This document shows positions 35,742 through 54,158 of a stretch of DNA of 64,000 nucleotides, piece by piece. The stretch lies in assembly GCF_001677475.2 (NCBI RefSeq), contig NZ_CP015229.1. One strand, 5' to 3'. This stretch comes from Escherichia coli. GTDB taxonomy: Bacteria; Pseudomonadota; Gammaproteobacteria; Enterobacterales; Enterobacteriaceae. The notes below the pieces were generated by a model. It made no database searches. It was not told the origin of the DNA and saw only the letters and a list, made by a program, of their open reading frames with translations. Position 1 is the stretch's first letter. Each line of letters opens with the position of its first letter. The position numbers and the translations under genes were made by a program.

Positions 35742-35800
35742 AAACGAAAGGGGCGACATTTAGTTGCCCCGAGATTACTGACAAAGTGCGCGTTGTTCAT

Positions 35801-35898
35801 GCCGGATGCGGCGTGACCGCCTTATCCGGCCTACGAAACGGCAAGAATTCAATATATTGCAGGAGCGGTGTAGGCCTGATAAGCGTAGCGCATCAGGC
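35801..35898. repeat. REP/BIME cluster (two inverted REP units) between mscK and ybaM
   Basis: GCCGGATGCGGCGTGACCGCCTTATCCGGCCTAC and GTAGGCCTGATAAGCGTAGCGCATCAGGC. Confidence 0.85.
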
Positions 35899-43890: not shown

Positions 43891-44853
43891 ATGCGTCAGA
43901 CTAAAACCGGTATCCTGCTAGCAAACCTGGGTACGCCCGATGCCCCCACACCTGAAGCGGTAAAACGCTATCTGAAACAATTTTTAAGCGACAGACGTGT
44001 GGTTGGTACCTCACGGTTGTTATGGTGGCCGTTGCTGCGCGGCGTGATTTTGCCGCTGCGCTCGCCGCGTGTGGCGAAGCTGTATGCCTCTGTCTGGATG
44101 GAAGGTGGCTCGCCGCTGATGGTTTACAGCCGCCAGCAACAGCAGGCGCTGGCACAACGTTTACCGGAGACGCCCGTAGCGCTGGGAATGAGCTACGGCT
44201 CGCCATCACTGGAAAGCGCCGTAGATGAACTCCTGGCAGAGCATGTAGATCATATTGTGGTGCTGCCGCTTTATCCGCAATACTCCTGTTCAACGGTCGG
44301 TGCGGTATGGGATGAACTGGCACGCATTCTGGCGCGCAAACGTAGCATTCCGGGGATATCGTTTATTCGTGATTACGCCGATAACCACGATTACATTAAT
44401 GCACTGGCGAACAGCGTACGCGCTTCTTTCGCTAAACATGGCGAACCGGATCTGCTGCTGCTCTCTTATCATGGCATTCCCCAGCGTTATGCAGATGAAG
44501 GCGATGATTATCCGCAACGTTGCCGCACAACGACTCGCGAACTGGCTTCCGCACTGGGGATGGCACCGGAAAAAGTGATGATGACCTTTCAGTCGCGCTT
44601 TGGGCGGGAACCCTGGCTGATGCCTTATACCGACGAAACGCTGAAAATGCTCGGAGAAAAAGGCGTAGGTCATATTCAGGTGATGTGCCCGGGCTTTGCT
44701 GCGGATTGTCTGGAGACGCTGGAAGAGATTGCCGAGCAAAACCGTGAGGTCTTCCTCGGTGCGGGCGGGAAAAAATACGAATATATTCCGGCGCTTAATG
44801 CCACGCCGGAACATATTGAAATGATGGCTAATCTTGTTGCCGCGTATCGCTAA
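43891..44853 (+). CDS. hemH: ferrochelatase (320 aa)
   Basis: [38 protein letters not shown]... matches E. coli HemH. Confidence 0.97.
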
Positions 44854-45809
44854 AGCTGAGCGGTAAAGAATTGAGCGCCGTCGCGAAGAGCCTCGTCGGC
44901 GGTTTTCATCATCCGTGAATAATGCAAAAAGGCGTGCAGCGTGCCTGGGTAGAGTTTGAACTCACAGGGCTGCTGATGCGCCGCTAACGTCTGGTAAAGC
45001 AGACGGCTGTCATCCAGCAGCGGATCGAACTCCGCCCCGGCAATAAAACAGGGCGGAACTTCGCGAGTGAGATCATTATTAAACAGGCAGTAATACGGCG
45101 ACTCGCGGTCCGCGTCGTTGCTTAAATACGCCTCTTCATACATCTGTAAATCCTGTTGCGTTAAGCCATCCCAGACACCGCCCAACAGACGACGAGTCAC
45201 GGAATCCCGTAATCCGTAAAGCCCATACCACAGCAAAACGCCCGCAACTTTACCGCAATCGATCTGTTTATCACGCAACCACAACGCACTGGCGAGCGCC
45301 AGCATGGCACCTGCGGAATCACCGGCAAAGCCAATGCGGGACATATTGATTTGATAATCCTCCGCCTGCTGGTGGAAATAACAACAAGCAGCCACAATTT
45401 CCTCTATCGCTTGCGGAAAACGCGCTTCAGGTGAAAGGGTGTAATCAATACCAATCACCGTACATTGGCTGTAGCTTGCCAGCAGGCGCATGATGCGATC
45501 GTGGGTATCGAGATTGCCGAGAATAAAACCGCCTCCATGCAAATAAAATAGCGTCGCTGGGCTATCTGGCTGCGGACAAAAGAGACGTGTTTCCACCTGC
45601 CCATATTTTGTTGGAACCATGTAAGCTCTGGTTGCCATTTCTGGAGCGCCCGCATTCCAGAATCGGCGCTCAAGCGTGTAATACTGTCGTTGCTCAGCAA
45701 TCGTTCCCGTTGCGGGCCAGGGCGGTAAATCCGGCTGAAGAGTATTCACAACGGTCTTCATTTCAGCAGAAATAAGGTCCAGAACGGGTAATTTGTTTTC
45801 CGGCTTCAT
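44850..45809 (-). CDS. aes: acetyl esterase (319 aa)
   Basis: alpha/beta hydrolase motifs HGGGF and GDSAG; matches E. coli Aes; convergent 4-nt overlap with hemH stop. Confidence 0.97.
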
Positions 45810-45960
45810 ACAAAAACTCCTTTCAAATTACGTCATTGTAAGGAACCACTGCCATGAAAATGCGATCCCGCCTGCTGATATTGAAACTGGCTGCGTCTCG
45901 CGCGCTCCCGTCAGATTGTGTTAACATTCGCCGCTCAGTTAACCACCCGTAAAAACAACC

Positions 45961-47265
45961 ATGAAATTTCCCGGTAAACGTAAATCCAAACATTACTTCC
46001 CTGTAAATGCACGCGATCCGCTGCTTCAGCAATTCCAGCCAGAAAACGAAACCAGCGCCGCCTGGGTCGTAGGTATTGACCAGACGCTGGTCGATATTGA
46101 AGCGAAAGTGGATGATGAATTCATTGAGCGTTATGGATTAAGCGCCGGGCATTCACTGGTGATTGAGGATGACGTAGCCGAAGCGCTTTATCAGGAACTA
46201 AAACAGAAAAACCTGATTACCCATCAGTTTGCGGGTGGCACCATTGGTAACACCATGCACAACTACTCGGTGCTCGCGGACGACCGTTCGGTGCTGCTGG
46301 GCGTCATGTGCAGCAATATTGAAATTGGCAGCTATGCCTATCGTTACCTGTGTAACACCTCCAGCCGTACCGATCTTAACTATCTACAAGGCGTGGATGG
46401 CCCGATTGGTCGTTGCTTTACACTGATTGGCGAGTCCGGGGAACGTACCTTTGCTATCAGCCCTGGCCACATGAACCAGCTGCGGGCTGAAAGCATTCCG
46501 GAAGATGTGATTGCCGGAGCCTCGGCTCTGGTTCTCACCTCTTATCTGGTGCGTTGCAAGCCGGGTGAACCCATGCCGGAAGCAACCATGAAAGCCATTG
46601 AGTACGCGAAGAAATATAACGTACCGGTGGTGCTGACGCTGGGCACCAAGTTTGTTATTGCCGAGAATCCGCAGTGGTGGCAGCAATTCCTCAAAGATCA
46701 CGTCTCTATCCTTGCGATGAACGAAGATGAAGCCGAAGCGTTGACCGGAGAAAGCGATCCGTTGTTGGCATCTGACAAGGCGCTGGACTGGGTAGATCTG
46801 GTGCTGTGCACCGCCGGGCCAATCGGCTTGTATATGGCGGGCTTTACTGAAGACGAAGCGAAACGTAAAACCCAGCATCCGCTGCTGCCGGGCGCTATAG
46901 CGGAATTTAACCAGTATGAGTTTAGCCGCGCCATGCGCCACAAGGATTGCCAGAATCCGCTGCGTGTCTATTCGCACATTGCGCCGTATATGGGCGGGCC
47001 GGAAAAAATCATGAACACTAATGGAGCGGGGGATGGCGCACTGGCAGCGTTGCTGCATGACATTACCGCCAACAGCTACCACCGTAGCAACGTACCAAAC
47101 TCCAGCAAACATAAATTCACCTGGTTGACGTATTCGTCATTAGCGCAGGTGTGTAAATATGCTAACCGTGTGAGCTATCAGGTACTGAACCAGCATTCAC
47201 CTCGTTTAACGCGCGGCTTGCCGGAGCGTGAAGACAGCCTGGAAGAGTCTTACTGGGATCGTTAA
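45961..47265 (+). CDS. gsk: inosine-guanosine kinase (434 aa)
   Basis: MKFPGKRKSKHYFPVNARDPLLQQFQPENETSAAWVVGIDQTLVDIEA... matches E. coli Gsk. Confidence 0.97.
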   Translation: MKFPGKRKSKHYFPVNARDPLLQQFQPENETSAAWVVGIDQTLVDIEAKVDDEFIERYGLSAGHSLVIEDDVAEALYQELKQKNLITHQFAGGTIGNTMHNYSVLADDRSVLLGVMCSNIEIGSYAYRYLCNTSSRTDLNYLQGVDGPIGRCFTLIGESGERTFAISPGHMNQLRAESIPEDVIAGASALVLTSYLVRCKPGEPMPEATMKAIEYAKKYNVPVVLTLGTKFVIAENPQWWQQFLKDHVSILAMNEDEAEALTGESDPLLASDKALDWVDLVLCTAGPIGLYMAGFTEDEAKRKTQHPLLPGAIAEFNQYEFSRAMRHKDCQNPLRVYSHIAPYMGGPEKIMNTNGAGDGALAALLHDITANSYHRSNVPNSSKHKFTWLTYSSLAQVCKYANRVSYQVLNQHSPRLTRGLPEREDSLEESYWDR

Positions 47266-47279
47266 GTTATCGTCGGTTC

Positions 47280-47363
47280 GTAGGCCAGATAAGGCGTTCA
47301 CGCCGCATCTGGCATTTGGCTCTCGATGCCTGATGCGACGCTGGCGCGTCTTATCAGGCCTAC
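47280..47363. repeat. REP/BIME cluster (two inverted REP units) between gsk and ybaL
   Basis: GTAGGCCAGATAAGGCGTTCACGCCGCATCTGGCA and GCCTGATGCGACGCTGGCGCGTCTTATCAGGCCTAC. Confidence 0.85.
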
Positions 47364-47394
47364 ATATCCGCGCCTATTATCCGGCAACCACCGT

Positions 47395-49071
47395 TTACCC
47401 CGTCACCACCTCACCCGCCGGTGGCGTTTCCAGCAGTTCCAGCATAGTACGGGCAATTTCACGCTCACCCATCACTACCTGATTTGCACCACGTTCGGTG
47501 ATATACGCCACTTCATCGTCATAATGGGCGCGGGCAATAATCTCAATATCCGGATTTTTCGCGCGGGCAGATGCCACAATCTCACCCGCTTCATAACCGT
47601 TGGGAATCGTCAGGATCAGCCATTTTGCACATTCCAGATGCGCCAGTTGCATAATTTCTTCGTTCGCCGCATTGCCCAATACTGCGCGGACCCCGCGCTC
47701 TCGCAGTTCATCAACACGGGTTCGTGACGTCTCAATCACCACTAAAGGAATATCAGAGGCGAGCAATTTCTCCCCCAGCAGGCTGCCTACACGACCGTAA
47801 CCCACCAGTAGCGCATGGTTGCAAATATCCACTGGGATCTGCTTCTCTTCTTCGATAGCCTCTTCCAGCGTCTGCTCTTCCAGCGTTTCGGTCTTCGCCA
47901 GATATTTCTCCAGCAGCGCAAACAGGACCGGGTTGAGCATAATCGACAAAATCGCCCCTGCCAGTACCAGGTTCTGCCCGGCTTGCGGCAACAGATCCAG
48001 CGCCATGCCTAGTCCCGCCAGGATAAACGCGAACTCACCAATTTGCGCCAGGCTGGCGGCGATAGTTAATGCCGTACGTTGGGAGTGACCAAACAGTCGC
48101 ACCAGGAAAAACGCGGCTAACGACTTACCAAACAGAATAATCGCCAGCGTCGCCAGCACTGCCAGCGGTTGCTGAATCAGAATTAACGGATCAAACAACA
48201 TCCCGACGGAGACAAAAAACAGCACCGCAAACGCGTCGCGCAATGGCAGCGTATCGTGGGCGGCACGGTGACTCAGTTCAGACTCGTTCAGTACCATCCC
48301 GGCAAAGAACGCACCGAGTGCAAAGGAGACATCAAACAGCTCCACCGCACCAAAGGCAATCCCTAACGCCAGCGCCAGCACCGACAGGGTAAACAGCTCA
48401 CGGGAACCGGTTGCTGCGCTACGTGCCATAATCCACGGCACCAGACGGCGACCTACCAGCATCATAATGGCGATAAATGCGATCACCTTGCCGATGGTGA
48501 TCCCCATATCGACAGCAAGAGTGGCAAAGCCCACATCGCCTTGTTCCATCATTCCTGCCACTGCGGGCAGCAACACCAGCGTCAGAACCATTACCAGGTC
48601 TTCCACAATCAACCAACCGATGGCGATTTGCCCACGCTGACTGTCAATTAATTGCCGTTCTTCAAGTGCGCGCAGTAACACCACGGTACTGGCAGTGGAA
48701 AGGCATAAGCCGAACACGATACCGGTCATTAACGACCAGCCCAGCACGGCGGAGAGCGCCATACCCAGCAGCGTCGCCACGGCTATCTGGGCGATCGCAC
48801 CGGGAATGGCGATGGCCTTTACCGCCATCAAATCCTTCAGCGAAAAGTGCAGACCCACGCCAAACATCAACAGAATGACGCCCAGTTCAGCCAGTTCCGG
48901 CGCAAGCTTGGTATCGGCAACAAAGCCCGGAGTGAATGGTCCTGCCAGCACACCCGCTAACAGATATCCCACCAGAGGAGAAATACGTAGTTTATTGGCC
49001 AGCATGCCGAGGATAAAGGCGAGCACAAGGCCGCCAACAATGGTGGTGATAAGCGGGGTGGCGTGATGCAT
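47395..49071 (-). CDS. ybaL: CPA2-family monovalent cation:proton antiporter with C-terminal TrkA-N/RCK domain (558 aa)
   Basis: MHHATPLITTIVGGLVLAFILGMLANKLRISPLVGYLLAGVLAGPF... matches E. coli YbaL. Confidence 0.96.
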   Translation of the reverse strand: MHHATPLITTIVGGLVLAFILGMLANKLRISPLVGYLLAGVLAGPFTPGFVADTKLAPELAELGVILLMFGVGLHFSLKDLMAVKAIAIPGAIAQIAVATLLGMALSAVLGWSLMTGIVFGLCLSTASTVVLLRALEERQLIDSQRGQIAIGWLIVEDLVMVLTLVLLPAVAGMMEQGDVGFATLAVDMGITIGKVIAFIAIMMLVGRRLVPWIMARSAATGSRELFTLSVLALALGIAFGAVELFDVSFALGAFFAGMVLNESELSHRAAHDTLPLRDAFAVLFFVSVGMLFDPLILIQQPLAVLATLAIILFGKSLAAFFLVRLFGHSQRTALTIAASLAQIGEFAFILAGLGMALDLLPQAGQNLVLAGAILSIMLNPVLFALLEKYLAKTETLEEQTLEEAIEEEKQIPVDICNHALLVGYGRVGSLLGEKLLASDIPLVVIETSRTRVDELRERGVRAVLGNAANEEIMQLAHLECAKWLILTIPNGYEAGEIVASARAKNPDIEIIARAHYDDEVAYITERGANQVVMGEREIARTMLELLETPPAGEVVTG

Positions 49072-49308
49072 TCCGTCTCCTTTTCCTGGTGGTTATTGTC
49101 CATTTTTGGCCGGGAAAACCAAAATTACAGGTAATAGTTTATGACAATTTCATTGATGATGTTTATGAATAATTGTTGAATTTTGCAGAAAAATGGAATT
49201 AGCTGCAAAAAAAGCACGGATCGGAAAACTGAAGGCGGTTTAACAGAGGAAAGGCTTATGGCGACTGTAAAACGATGCAGCCAAAGTTTGCCTTTGGCTG
49301 CAATGAAA

Positions 49309-50529
49309 TCAGTCTTTATGCCGGTTATCAGGCAGGAATATGGTCAACATCCCCAATAGTGGCAGGAAAGCACAGATTTTATAGACTAACTCGATGCTGG
49401 TGTGATCGGCGATAAGCCCCAGAACTGCCGCTCCCAGACCTCCCATGCCAAAAGCAAAACCGAAAAAGAGTCCAGAAACCATACCGATACGTCCCGGAAG
49501 CAGCTCCTGAGCGTAGACCAGAATGGCAGAGAATGCCGAAGCGAGGATAAATCCAATTATCACTGTTAAAACCCCCGTCCAGTGCAGACTGGCGTAGGGT
49601 AAAATCAGCGTAAACGGCGCAACGCCGAGGATAGAGCCCCAAATCACATATTTCCGTCCAATTTTATCCCCTACAGGCCCGCCGATCACCGTACCTGCCG
49701 CAACGGCAAACAGGAAGGCAAACAGATGAAGCTGGGCATTCTGGATAGATAATCCGAATTTTTGCATCAGATAAAAGGTGTAATAGCTGCTGATGCTCGC
49801 CATATAGAAATATTTCGAGAAAATGAGGATTAACAGAATGCTGACCGCCAGTACCACTTTGTTGCGCGGCAGCGGATTGATAATCGTCGCTTTGGGTTTT
49901 CCTTTATTCATTCGGTGCTGTGCCGAGTACCAACGGCTGATTTGCGCCAACACCACGATCGCCAGCAGTGCCGCAAGCACAAACCAGGCAACGTTGCCTT
50001 TGCCATAAGGCGCGATAATCACCGCCGCCAGCAAGGGTCCCAGGGAACTGCCAAAGTTGCCGCCGACCTGAAAGATAGATTGTGCCAGGCCATGCCGCCC
50101 GCCGGACGCCATACGGGCCACGCGAGAAGATTCCGGATGAAAGACCGATGAACCGGTACCGACCAGCGCCGCCGCCAGCAGAACTGCGCCAAAACTGCCC
50201 GCCAGCGCCAGCAGCACCAGACCACTTAAGGTAAAGCACATGCCAATTGGCAACGACCACGGCATCGGATATTTATCGGTCCAGTAGCCGACCACTGGTT
50301 GCAGTAGCGAAGAGGCGAGCTGGAAGGTGAGGGTTATCATGCCAATCTGCATAAATGTCAGAGAAAATTCTGACTGAAGCAGAGGATAAATCGCCAGAAT
50401 CAGCGATTGGATCATGTCGTTCAGCAGATGTGAGAGGCTGATAGCACCTAAAATACCAAACGATGTTCGGGCCTTGGTCGTTGACGCAGCCGCGCCCGCC
50501 ACAGGCTGGGTTTGTTCACTTATTGCCAT
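49309..50529 (-). CDS. fsr: fosmidomycin resistance MFS efflux protein (406 aa)
   Basis: 12-TM MFS protein; matches E. coli Fsr. Confidence 0.95.
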   Translation of the reverse strand: MAISEQTQPVAGAAASTTKARTSFGILGAISLSHLLNDMIQSLILAIYPLLQSEFSLTFMQIGMITLTFQLASSLLQPVVGYWTDKYPMPWSLPIGMCFTLSGLVLLALAGSFGAVLLAAALVGTGSSVFHPESSRVARMASGGRHGLAQSIFQVGGNFGSSLGPLLAAVIIAPYGKGNVAWFVLAALLAIVVLAQISRWYSAQHRMNKGKPKATIINPLPRNKVVLAVSILLILIFSKYFYMASISSYYTFYLMQKFGLSIQNAQLHLFAFLFAVAAGTVIGGPVGDKIGRKYVIWGSILGVAPFTLILPYASLHWTGVLTVIIGFILASAFSAILVYAQELLPGRIGMVSGLFFGFAFGMGGLGAAVLGLIADHTSIELVYKICAFLPLLGMLTIFLPDNRHKD

Positions 50530-50746
50530 AGGAAAGTCACTTTTTCAGGGTTGCGATGTAAAGAATGATCTTATTTGTGATTATTACCCGACTAACATAC
50601 CTGTATGCGCCCCCTGAAGGAAGTCTCAACGCTGAATACAGAATTTCTAATCTGGATACAGATTTATCTTCACCGGACGCAGACTTGTCTATGATGTCGC
50701 GTCATACTATTTTTCAACACGTTGAAATCAGGTCAGGGAGAGAAGT

Positions 50747-52399
50747 ATGAAATTATTGCAGCGGGGCGTGGCGTTAGCACTGTTAACCACATTTACACTG
50801 GCGAGTGAAACTGCTCTGGCGTATGAGCAGGATAAAACCTACAAAATTACAGTTCTGCACACCAATGATCATCATGGGCATTTTTGGCGCAATGAATATG
50901 GCGAATATGGTCTGGCGGCGCAAAAAACGCTGGTGGATGGTATCCGCAAAGAGGTTGTGGCTGAAGGCGGTAGCGTGCTGCTACTTTCCGGTGGCGACAT
51001 TAATACTGGCGTGCCCGAGTCCGACTTACAGGATGCCGAACCTGATTTTCGCGGCATGAATCTGGTGGGCTATGACGCGATGGCAATCGGTAATCATGAA
51101 TTTGATAACCCGCTCACCGTATTACGCCAGCAGGAAAAGTGGGCAAAGTTCCCGTTGCTTTCTGCCAATATCTACCAGAAAAGTACCGGCGAGCGCCTGT
51201 TTAAACCGTGGGCGCTGTTTAAGCGTCAGGATCTGAAAATTGCCGTTATTGGCCTGACGACGGATGACACAGCGAAGTTAGGCAACCCAGAAAACTTTAC
51301 CGATATTGAGTTCCGTAAGCCCGCCGATGAAGCGAAGCTGGTGATTCAGGAGCTGCAACAGACAGAAAAGCCAGACATTATTATCGCGGCGACCCATATG
51401 GGGCATTACGACAACGGTGAGCACGGCTCTAACGCAGCGGGCGATGTAGAGATGGCGCGCAGCCTGCCTGCCGGATCGTTGGCGATGATTGTCGGCGGTC
51501 ACTCGCAAGATCCGGTCTGCATGGCGGCAGAAAACAAAAAACAGGTCGATTACGTGCCGGGTACGCCATGCAAACCAGATCAACAAAACGGCATCTGGAT
51601 TGTGCAGGCGCATGAGTGGGGCAAATACGTGGGACGGGCTGATTTTGAGTTTCGTAATGGCGAAATGAAAATGGTTAACTACCAGCTGATTCCGGTGAAC
51701 CTGAAGAAGAAAGTGACCTGGGAAGACGGGAAAAGCGAGCGTGTGCTTTACACCCCTGAAATCGCTGAAAACCAGCAAATGATCTCGCTGTTATCGCCGT
51801 TCCAGAACAAAGGCAAAGCGCAGCTGGAAGTGAAAATAGGCGAAACCAATGGTCGTCTGGAAGGCGATCGTGACAAAGTGCGTTTTGTACAGACCAATAT
51901 GGGGCGATTAATTCTGGCAGCCCAAATGGATCGTACTGGTGCTGACTTTGCGGTGATGAGTGGAGGCGGAATTCGTGATTCTATCGAAGCAGGCGATATC
52001 AGCTATAAAAACGTGCTGAAAGTGCAGCCATTCGGCAATGTGGTGGTGTATGCCGACATGACCGGTAAAGAGGTGATTGATTACCTGACCGCCGTCGCAC
52101 AAATGAAGCCAGATTCAGGTGCCTACCCGCAATTTGCCAACGTTAGCTTTGTGGCGAAAGACGGCAAACTGAACGACCTGAAAATCAACGGCGAACCGGT
52201 CGATCCGGCGAAAACTTACCGCATGGCGACATTAAACTTCAATGCCACCGGCGGTGATGGCTATCCGCGCCTTGATAACAAACCGGGCTATGTGAATACC
52301 GGCTTTATTGATGCCGAAGTGCTGAAAGCGTATATCCAGAAGAGCTCGCCGCTGGATGTGAGTGTCTATGAACCGAAAGGTGAGGTGAGCTGGCAGTAA
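50747..52399 (+). CDS. ushA: periplasmic UDP-sugar hydrolase / 5'-nucleotidase (550 aa)
   Basis: signal peptide, metallophosphatase motifs (VLHTNDHHG, GNHEFD); matches E. coli UshA. Confidence 0.97.
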   Translation: MKLLQRGVALALLTTFTLASETALAYEQDKTYKITVLHTNDHHGHFWRNEYGEYGLAAQKTLVDGIRKEVVAEGGSVLLLSGGDINTGVPESDLQDAEPDFRGMNLVGYDAMAIGNHEFDNPLTVLRQQEKWAKFPLLSANIYQKSTGERLFKPWALFKRQDLKIAVIGLTTDDTAKLGNPENFTDIEFRKPADEAKLVIQELQQTEKPDIIIAATHMGHYDNGEHGSNAAGDVEMARSLPAGSLAMIVGGHSQDPVCMAAENKKQVDYVPGTPCKPDQQNGIWIVQAHEWGKYVGRADFEFRNGEMKMVNYQLIPVNLKKKVTWEDGKSERVLYTPEIAENQQMISLLSPFQNKGKAQLEVKIGETNGRLEGDRDKVRFVQTNMGRLILAAQMDRTGADFAVMSGGGIRDSIEAGDISYKNVLKVQPFGNVVVYADMTGKEVIDYLTAVAQMKPDSGAYPQFANVSFVAKDGKLNDLKINGEPVDPAKTYRMATLNFNATGGDGYPRLDNKPGYVNTGFIDAEVLKAYIQKSSPLDVSVYEPKGEVSWQ

Positions 52400-52407
52400 T
52401 CCGAAAG

Positions 52408-52430
52408 TGCCGGATATTTGCATCCGGCAC
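52408..52430. terminator. bidirectional hairpin between convergent ushA and ybaK
   Basis: inverted repeat gtgccggat-atttgc-atccggcac. Confidence 0.6.
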
Positions 52431-52435
52431 AATGC

Positions 52436-52915
52436 TTAATCGCGGCGGGCGATATCAACAAATTTGGCATCGAGGATCTTTGCCAGATCGCCTGCCGCCA
52501 GTTCGATATCCAGCCCGCGCTTGCCGCCGGAAACATAAATAGTGGCAAATTCTTGTGCGGGGGCGTCGATAATCGTTGGCAGACGTTTTTTCTGCCCCAG
52601 TGGGCTAATCCCCCCTACCAGATACCCCGTCGAACGCTGCGCGACCATCGGATCGGCCATCTCAACTTTCTTGGCACCCAGCGCTTTTGCTACTTTTTTA
52701 AGATCCAGTTGACCTGCGACCGGCGTAACAGCCACGGCAAGGTGTTTCATATCACCGTTCACTGCGACCAGCAGCGTTTTGTAGACCTGATCCGGATTCA
52801 AACCTAATTTTTTGACGACTTCATCGCCAAAATTGGTTTCAGCCGGATCGTGCTCGTAGGTATGGATTTGAAACGAAATCTTGTTTTTTTCGAGTAATTT
52901 AACTGCCGGTGTCAT
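52436..52915 (-). CDS. ybaK: Cys-tRNA(Pro)/Cys-tRNA(Cys) deacylase (159 aa)
   Basis: [39 protein letters not shown]... matches E. coli YbaK. Confidence 0.96.
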
Positions 52916-53036
52916 GGTAATTTTCCTGCCTTAAACAAAAAAACGAAGCAAGCATACGCCTGATGGCGGTCCAAAAAAAAGAGTCATCTTGCCTAAGAGT
53001 ATTGGCAGGATGGTGAGATTGAGCGACAATCGAGTT

Positions 53037-53120
53037 ACACCGTCGCTTAAAGTGACGGCATAATAATAAAAAAATGAAATTCCTCTTTGACGGGCCAATA
53101 GCGATATTGGCCATTTTTTT
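53037..53120 (+). ncRNA. chiX: ChiX (MicM/SroB) Hfq-dependent small RNA, about 84 nt
   Basis: ACACCGTCGCTTAAAGTGACGGCATAATAATAAAAAAATGAAATTCCTCTTTGACGGGCCAATAGCGATATTGGCCATTTTTTT matches recalled ChiX sequence including intrinsic terminator; ybaK-ybaP intergenic as in K-12. Confidence 0.88.
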
Positions 53121-53913
53121 AGCGCAACATCTGCGGCAAATTCCCTTCTCCATACAGATGTAGTGCACCGACCGCGACCACATAGCGCCCCGGCGGCATG
53201 TTGCGTAATTTGTCCCGCCAGGCGAGATTTCGCTGGTGCATCAGTACATCGTACAGCGACTGGCTGAACGTATTCGGCAGCGTTATTTCATTATTTTGCG
53301 GCGGTGTATTCAGCCACCAGCTCATCATTTGTTGCAGCAACCGTGCGTTGGTATGCCAGTGGGTCAGCGTATCGTCCAGCAGCGTCAGTCCTTTGTCAGG
53401 GAGCTGGAGCAACATGGCAATCTGGTTTTCAGCCCCTTCCAGTTCAATCACGGGTTTATGTTGTTGCTTCGCCGCCTGCAATAGCTGGTAATCGATACCG
53501 TATTCTGCCCGCAGCCCCAGTTTTTGTGCCTGCGTTGCCTGAAGAACCATCGCGATTTGCCACAGCGGTTGGGTAGAAAAGAGTGACGGAGAAATGCCCA
53601 TCTCCTGGCTAATGTGCTGCAGATTTTGTAATTGCTCCTCGCTAATACGCTCTTCCAGCGCCTCGCAGGCAGGCAAATTAGCAAAAGGCGTATCGCTGGT
53701 GGAAACATCAGCCTCGACGATCAGCGCATCGGCGTTTTTGAGCTTTTTGAGCAAACGGGTGGGCAGGGGAGCCATATCGTGACTCCCCATATGAATACTG
53801 CCAATCAGATGAAAATGGCGATTGCCGGGAAGAGAGATATCGATGGCAGGCCAGGTGTAATGATTACCGCGCAGCGCGGCCCAAAGCGTTTTTACCCGGT
53901 ACAACAGATCCAT
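53119..53913 (-). CDS. ybaP: TraB/GumN-family protein YbaP (264 aa)
   Basis: MDLLYRVKTLWAALRGNHYTWPAIDISLPGNRHFHLIGSIHMGSHDMAPLP... matches E. coli YbaP; stop codon overlaps ChiX terminator T-run. Confidence 0.95.
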   Translation of the reverse strand: MDLLYRVKTLWAALRGNHYTWPAIDISLPGNRHFHLIGSIHMGSHDMAPLPTRLLKKLKNADALIVEADVSTSDTPFANLPACEALEERISEEQLQNLQHISQEMGISPSLFSTQPLWQIAMVLQATQAQKLGLRAEYGIDYQLLQAAKQQHKPVIELEGAENQIAMLLQLPDKGLTLLDDTLTHWHTNARLLQQMMSWWLNTPPQNNEITLPNTFSQSLYDVLMHQRNLAWRDKLRNMPPGRYVVAVGALHLYGEGNLPQMLR

Positions 53914-54021
53914 ACGGCCTCCCTTTGTGAAATATCATGCTAGCGCGCGGGGAGGGATGGCGCAAATGGAGTTGATTGTTGCACTTGTGCACAGTGCGTC
54001 ATCCGGCAACTGAGTACCATT

Positions 54022-54103
54022 GCCTGATGCGACGCTGGCGCGTCTTATCATGCCTACAAACCTGTGCCGTAGGCTGGATAAGGCGTTCACGCCGCATCCG
54101 GCA
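54022..54103. repeat. REP/BIME cluster between ybaP and copA
   Basis: GCCTGATGCGACGCTGGCGCGTCTTATCATGCCTAC and GTAGGCTGGATAAGGCGTTCACGCCGCATCCGGCA; same two REP types as the gsk-ybaL cluster in swapped order. Confidence 0.85.
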
Positions 54104-54158
54104 GTCTGCGTCGATGCCAAATGCGCCACCCTAAAGCAGCGCATCCGCAATGACATAC

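Follow-up and report, generated by a model that had tools for sequence, protein, structure and literature searches.

In Escherichia coli K-12 the gene ybaQ lies between ybaP and copA. In the 64,000-nucleotide stretch of the E. coli contig NZ_CP015229.1 that was analysed here (the window), these two neighbours are separated by a spacer of 245 bp (53914-54158), which raises the question of what became of ybaQ. An earlier note on this DNA had given the K-12 gene order and proposed a strain-specific deletion, a replacement of ybaQ by a cluster of REP sequences, or a lineage that had never possessed the gene. This order is correct, as ybaP-ybaQ-copA is seen in W3110 and in most E. coli.

In RefSeq ybaQ is annotated as a HigA-family antitoxin, and its product matches Pfam PF01381. 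It is preceded in 1,267 of 5,426 complete E. coli genomes by a gene for a 100-aa RelE/ParE-family toxin, which is HigB-like by Pfam (PF05015, 3e-32) in the toxin-antitoxin (TA) allele. According to Rousset et al. (bioRxiv 10.1101/2020.05.25.114553), the only strains in which ybaQ is an essential gene are those of B2 and F that carry this toxin, higB-1; a YbaQ-binding motif sits in the higB-1 promoter, the knock-down of ybaQ de-represses higB-1, and strains with an intact higB-1 do not survive the loss of ybaQ by itself. The same authors report that most phylogroups, K-12 included, are without higB-1 and that phylogroup D has lost both genes. The YbaQ of K-12 has been named a solitary antitoxin (RASTA-Bacteria, PMC2374986). 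In Nissle 1917 higB-1 is annotated as a frameshifted pseudogene next to an intact ybaQ.

The limits of the spacer were set by gene assignments using NCBIfam, Pfam and E. coli records (Table 1), and they agree with the interval given in the earlier note. The homologue of the upstream gene is called ybaP in every E. coli record compared. On the other side, the CopA ORF extends over 54159-56732 on the minus strand, and residue 24 of this ORF is the first of the 834-aa protein. Searching all 64 kb by tblastn with YbaQ and the HigB-1 toxin gave no match better than E = 1.6. No HigB-like toxin ORF (PF05015) with E < 1 and no YbaQ match indicative of an HTH (XRE/HigA) antitoxin ORF were found in the window by this method, and ybaQ is missing here as had been claimed.

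Table 1. Features of the window around the ybaP-copA spacer
Feature	Position	Strand	Basis
ushA	50747-52399	+	ORF list and homologous E. coli annotation
ybaK	52436-52915	-	NCBIfam names YbaK
ybaP, TraB/GumN family, 264 aa	53119-53913	-	Pfam PF01963, E = 4e-43
ybaP leader, ~60 bp common to every Escherichia allele	53914-53973		Alignments
Putative higB-1/ybaQ promoter-region remnant	53974-53999	+	Alignment/blastn to TA allele
Putative deletion junction (scar), TA-type sequence to REP1 tail	53997-54000		Alignments; same in E. whittamii
REP1 3' stump, 9 nt (CATCCGGCA)	54000-54008	+	Direct repeat with 3' end of REP3 (54095-54103)
REP2, complete, inverted relative to REP3	54021-54057	-	Inverted repeats I1 and I3
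REP3, complete	54069-54103	+	REP consensus, 1 mismatch at 54073-54103
GC-rich hairpin, candidate copA terminator	54119-54146	-	Fold; directly after copA stop codon
copA, 834 aa	54159-56663	-	NCBIfam NF007952, 1745.7 bits
glsA	56924-57856	+	NCBIfam names GlsA
ybaT	57859-59151	+	ORF list and homologous E. coli annotation

The earlier note had also seen no plausible ORF in the spacer, and this holds. The longest one (73 aa, 53935-54156, minus strand) has no NCBIfam family match, and a 1-nt indel destroys its reading frame in E. whittamii. The small mechanical ORFs of the spacer sit in leader and REP sequence and are not genes; we infer that the spacer is non-coding. A promoter and terminator scan of the spacer yielded neither a promoter-like site nor a called terminator. 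An inverted repeat of 15 nt, 80% complementary, brackets the variable part of the spacer (53955-53969 and 54117-54131; GGATGGCGCAAATGG and CCAAATGCGCCACCC); it may be due to chance or be the relic of an ancestral copA-ybaP hairpin. Further out, past ybaT (59152-64000), the window contains a TolC-family outer-membrane gene (59489-60844, PF02321) and then a giant gene for a BapA-related adhesin (siiEA), of which only the first part lies inside the window. This island is present in 959 of the 5,426 complete E. coli genomes (best identity 97.2%); in K-12 cueR occupies this position.

The 5,426 complete E. coli genomes were also searched for ybaQ. The gene is present in 4,834 of them (median 1 copy, maximum 2) and went undetected at megablast sensitivity in 592 (10.9%). 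About 23% have higB-1 together with ybaQ, and about 66% have ybaQ alone. In the ybaQ-only alleles the gene is followed by a REP cluster of variable size, with 113 to 921 bp from ybaQ to copA, whereas in TA alleles the two genes are 57 bp apart without any REP (8 of 8 distinct higB-1 contexts read in public assemblies). Two other kinds of spacer are devoid of ybaQ. The first, of 171 bp (HR12-1, TUM20902), keeps the last ~20 nt of ybaQ and is an internal deletion of an allele with a K-12-like upstream part and no REP. The second, of 428 bp (RIVM_C039205, GF43), occurs in 347 of the 5,426 genomes. In total, at least six structurally different alleles were found at this site.

In the 428-bp allele a GC-rich element of ~270 bp takes the place of ybaQ (positions 1876-2242 of the RIVM_C039205 locus; also in GF43) and has no counterpart in the window. 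The element recurs within E. coli genomes (median of 3 sites in each, 91-95% identity), shows a weak, sub-threshold Rfam match to TwoAYGGAY RNA (31.5 bits; threshold 43), and has the appearance of a small repeat that is dispersed and possibly mobile. The idea that this filler is a decayed TA remnant was dropped (local alignment against shuffles, 5/300), and so was the same idea for the filler of E. albertii, whose alignment to the TA allele was no better than that of shuffles (267/300). For the upstream segment of K-12 the corresponding comparison with the TA allele gave 298/300. A damaged ybaQ was seen in Escherichia sp. E1V33, where only residues 1-93 align and an internal deletion lies near the 3' end.

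Alignment to these alleles resolves the spacer of the window into two parts of different affinity. The left part resembles the TA locus of phylogroups B2 and F: positions 1-84 of the TA allele match 53914-53997 with 97.6% identity (blastn). The first ~55 bp of the ybaP leader are still recognisable in Citrobacter and Salmonella. Next to the leader, 53974-53997 (GATTGTTGCACTTGTGCACAGTGC) show no difference from the first bases of the promoter region in the Nissle-type (phylogroup B2-type) TA allele and are specific to it, as the K-12-like and E. albertii alleles differ there. The TA allele continues into a promoter-like sequence with -35 TGCACA and -10 AATAAT (positions 575-603 of our locus L016), and then into higB-1. 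In the window the predicted -35 hexamer TGCACA is kept (53988-53993), and everything from the -10 onward is gone. These 24 bp are thus predicted to be TA-module DNA rather than older backbone, on the basis of the promoter prediction and of the published statement on the higB-1 promoter; the promoter stump is probably inert.

The right part resembles the K-12-type allele with its solitary ybaQ. The sequence 54000-54153 matches the REP cluster located 3' of ybaQ in K-12-like alleles (90.7% over 161 aligned columns). It comprises the last 9 nt of REP1, the REP1-REP2 linker, REP2, REP3 and the 39 bp next to copA; the latter are also found in the TA allele, whose positions 832-870 match 54121-54159 with 100% identity (blastn). 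In K-12-like alleles (locus L003) a complete REP1 lies 22 bp past the ybaQ stop codon. The window differs from the TA locus by the absence of both genes and of the -10 and by the presence of the REP cluster, and it differs from the K-12-type allele by the absence of ybaQ, of a complete REP1 and of the upstream segment peculiar to that allele.

The two REP units that the earlier note had placed at 54022-54103 are present, with limits slightly refined here, and the 9-nt stump has to be added to them. REP2 and REP3 are GC-rich imperfect palindromes of ~35 nt that match the consensus and alternate in orientation between the stop codon of copA and the start codon of ybaP, and are therefore REP/BIME sequences by the usual definition. 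Together they form a BIME-type hairpin with a predicted fold of -81.4 kcal/mol (z = -3.93), and 0 of 200 shuffled sequences were as stable. The REP consensus is matched three times in the window against zero expected by chance, the other two copies being at 35800-35830 and 47284-47314. As with REP/BIME sequences of enterobacteria in general, the ~35-nt imperfect palindromes of the spacer are paired in inverted orientation where a gene ends, and the sole oddity is the 9-nt truncated copy at the deletion end point. For naRNA4, a REP-derived RNA family, only sub-threshold Rfam matches were obtained in the spacer.

The hairpin next to copA has a 12-bp stem followed by UUU only and was not called by a simple terminator consensus scan; it falls within the 39 bp common to nearly all alleles. 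BIMEs form the 3' ends of messages elsewhere, and the binding of gyrase, IHF or Pol I or a stabilising effect on mRNA is characteristic of REP/BIME repeats. By analogy, the copA message probably has this hairpin and the REP pair as its 3' end. The loops of REP/BIME sequences are also specific insertion sites for IS1397, and in JNE12-007, 10035776-3 and AST262 an IS3-like element of the IS1397 family was observed inside the homologues of 44000-53900. The REP copies of the window at 47284-47314 and 35800-35830 could be targets of IS1397.

What stands on either side of the junction is a truncated copy of a structure that normally flanks ybaQ, which argues for a deletion. In the other alleles the intact flanks adjoin ybaQ wherever either of them is intact, and the 9-nt REP fragment is best explained as a truncation. 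Most probably, then, the spacer was left behind when one old deletion removed the TA module composed of higB-1 and ybaQ. The ancestor would have had the order ybaP, leader, higB-1 promoter/operator, higB-1, ybaQ, REP1, REP2, REP3, copA terminator hairpin and copA. One illegitimate, non-homologous joining from just past the -35 region of higB-1 to 9 nt before the end of REP1 would have removed the -10, higB-1, ybaQ and 26 nt of REP1. Left over would be the ybaP leader, a dead promoter stump, the REP stump, the intact REP pair (BIME) and the hairpin next to copA; this pair and this hairpin presumably still function where the copA transcript ends, in its termination and in the stability of the mRNA. 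Both genes would have disappeared in one step, which would make the loss tolerable. Such a one-step loss fits the observation that a functional higB-1 does not allow ybaQ to be lost by itself (Rousset et al.). Neither microhomology nor a direct repeat was found at 53997-54000, and nothing at the junction supports a deletion mediated by RAYT, gyrase or an IS.

The proposed ancestor combines an upstream part of TA type with a downstream REP cluster. Three of the four possible combinations of upstream and downstream types were observed, namely TA without REP, K-12-like with REP and K-12-like without REP (locus L021). The fourth, TA with REP, would be the ancestor, and a crossover inside the shared ybaQ would generate it. 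A composite of higB-1, ybaQ and REP was found in 0 of the 5,426 complete E. coli genomes (at least 80% coverage), and a gapped exact pattern of the same composition had 0 matches in one metagenome contig scan. While the absence of the two genes, the make-up of the junction and the distribution of the allele are observed, we infer that the ancestor was composite, that the loss took one step and that the REPs retain a role.

The origin may have been less direct, toxin and ybaQ having been lost separately, or a patchwork of a TA donor and a K-12-type recipient having formed before the deletion. The locus is indeed a mosaic hot spot with its six or more alleles, and both a toxin-only loss (K-12-like) and a toxin frameshift (Nissle) exist. 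In addition, copA beside the site is unusually divergent, with 92-96% identity to complete E. coli genomes against 97.4-97.9% on the ybaK-ybaP side (52100-53913). This raised divergence next to a polymorphic spacer suggests old recombination or long-lived allelic lineages. However, the window has one junction and no leftover of the toxin, the intercistronic region or ybaQ, whereas the 171-bp allele keeps its trace of ybaQ, and we regard a stepwise or recombinational origin as very unlikely.

The REP cluster did not replace ybaQ, as the same cluster stands 3' of an intact ybaQ in K-12-like alleles. The deletion proposed in the earlier note can be retained, but not its strain-specific character. 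The window junction occurs in 0 of the 5,426 complete E. coli genomes, and the nearest of these to the window is 98.5% identical over 9.9 kb (44000-53900 tested); the window comes from a divergent E. coli-like lineage without a representative among the complete genomes. A look-up of the exact YbaP protein led to at least 24 public draft contigs, and all five distinct places listed have the 245-bp spacer. Over 6,795 bp GCA_016118615.1 does not differ from the window, and other matching drafts are ~99% identical, their spacers carrying 1-2 changes. E. whittamii (GTDB representative) has the same junction, ...AGTGCTT followed by CATCCGGCA, with identities to the window of 92.1% in the spacer, 94.6% in ybaP and 91.3% in copA. 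Because the allele is shared by several drafts and by E. whittamii at ~92%, it is old and lineage-wide.

These shared copies also bear on a trivial explanation, by which ybaQ would reside elsewhere in the genome or the spacer would have been mis-assembled across the REP repeats. Only 64 kb could be inspected, and REP repeats can collapse in assemblies. Nevertheless, the interval recurs in five independently assembled genomes, the E. whittamii junction is the same, and the ybaQ-bearing complete genomes have a median of one copy and at most two; relocation or an artefact is therefore scarcely credible.

A more serious alternative is that this lineage, like E. whittamii, never had higB-1 and ybaQ, and that the window represents an empty site, the TA module having been inserted in other lineages to the right of ...AGTGCTT. 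In 40 non-Escherichia representatives, which include Citrobacter, Salmonella, Klebsiella, Enterobacter and Trabulsiella, neither YbaQ nor the toxin was found in the loci read, four intervals of 1.5-3.3 kb being left out. These four are the exceptions among the 37 non-Escherichia loci with copA located; in all others ybaP and copA are 50-270 bp apart. The absence of YbaQ and toxin from the loci read indicates that the TA module is an Escherichia-specific acquisition. E. albertii likewise has no ybaQ. As the ybaQ-free state is ancestral at this deeper level, a lineage that never had ybaQ cannot be dismissed on parsimony alone, and the age of the window allele and the failure to find the TA-REP ancestor are in line with such a history. 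Within Escherichia, E. coli E69 (CP089930.1; ~91% identical to the window, 135 bp read upstream of ybaP) has a promoter of TA type followed by the first part of higB-1, and ybaQ alone is present in Escherichia sp. MOD1-EC7003 and E. coli SCPM-O-B-8794.

An empty site, however, would have had to contain the 9-nt REP fragment from the start, and the right end of the insert would have had to bring precisely the 26 nt by which REP1 is short. Moreover, the predicted -35 of higB-1 lies in the retained 24 bp, and a module inserted beside it would have come without a -35. The ybaQ-less interval of E. albertii has a different filler and differs in sequence at this place, and it is therefore not the same empty state. 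For these reasons, and with both sides of the junction being truncated, an original absence of ybaQ is disfavoured and in our opinion improbable, and we retain the deletion of an existing TA module as the preferred reading.

The 171-bp and 428-bp alleles share with the window the absence of ybaQ and toxin at the same site but have different junctions, and the three losses are therefore independent events. The loss described for phylogroup D likewise leaves the site without higB-1 and ybaQ. The variable presence of the locus, including the phylogroup D loss, has been published (Rousset et al.); what is new is the loss allele described here. The window allele is ordinary gene-content variation, in which a known, variably present TA locus has been lost.

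One could go further and regard the spacer as a long-lived polymorphic hot spot of Escherichia, with alleles that persist or cross species and with a deletion that predates the split between the E. coli-like lineage and E. whittamii. The alleles in question, at least six, are the TA module, the orphan antitoxin, three kinds of loss and the replacement by a repeat element. We consider this broader view rather unlikely. If it were true, it would suggest that a chromosomal HigB/HigA module has long been under balancing or frequency-dependent selection, for example through phage defence or addiction, and it would make REP/BIME sequences recurrent break points.

On the preferred reading, the K-12 gene missing here is explained by the loss of a known, dispensable TA module, which has little import beyond annotation and corrects the idea that REPs displaced ybaQ. 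The allele adds one more independent loss to a textbook locus of strain-dependent essentiality, at which ybaQ is essential only with an intact higB-1. The series of alleles could serve for the typing of Escherichia lineages, or as a case study of TA decay in which the toxin is lost first or both genes are lost at once.
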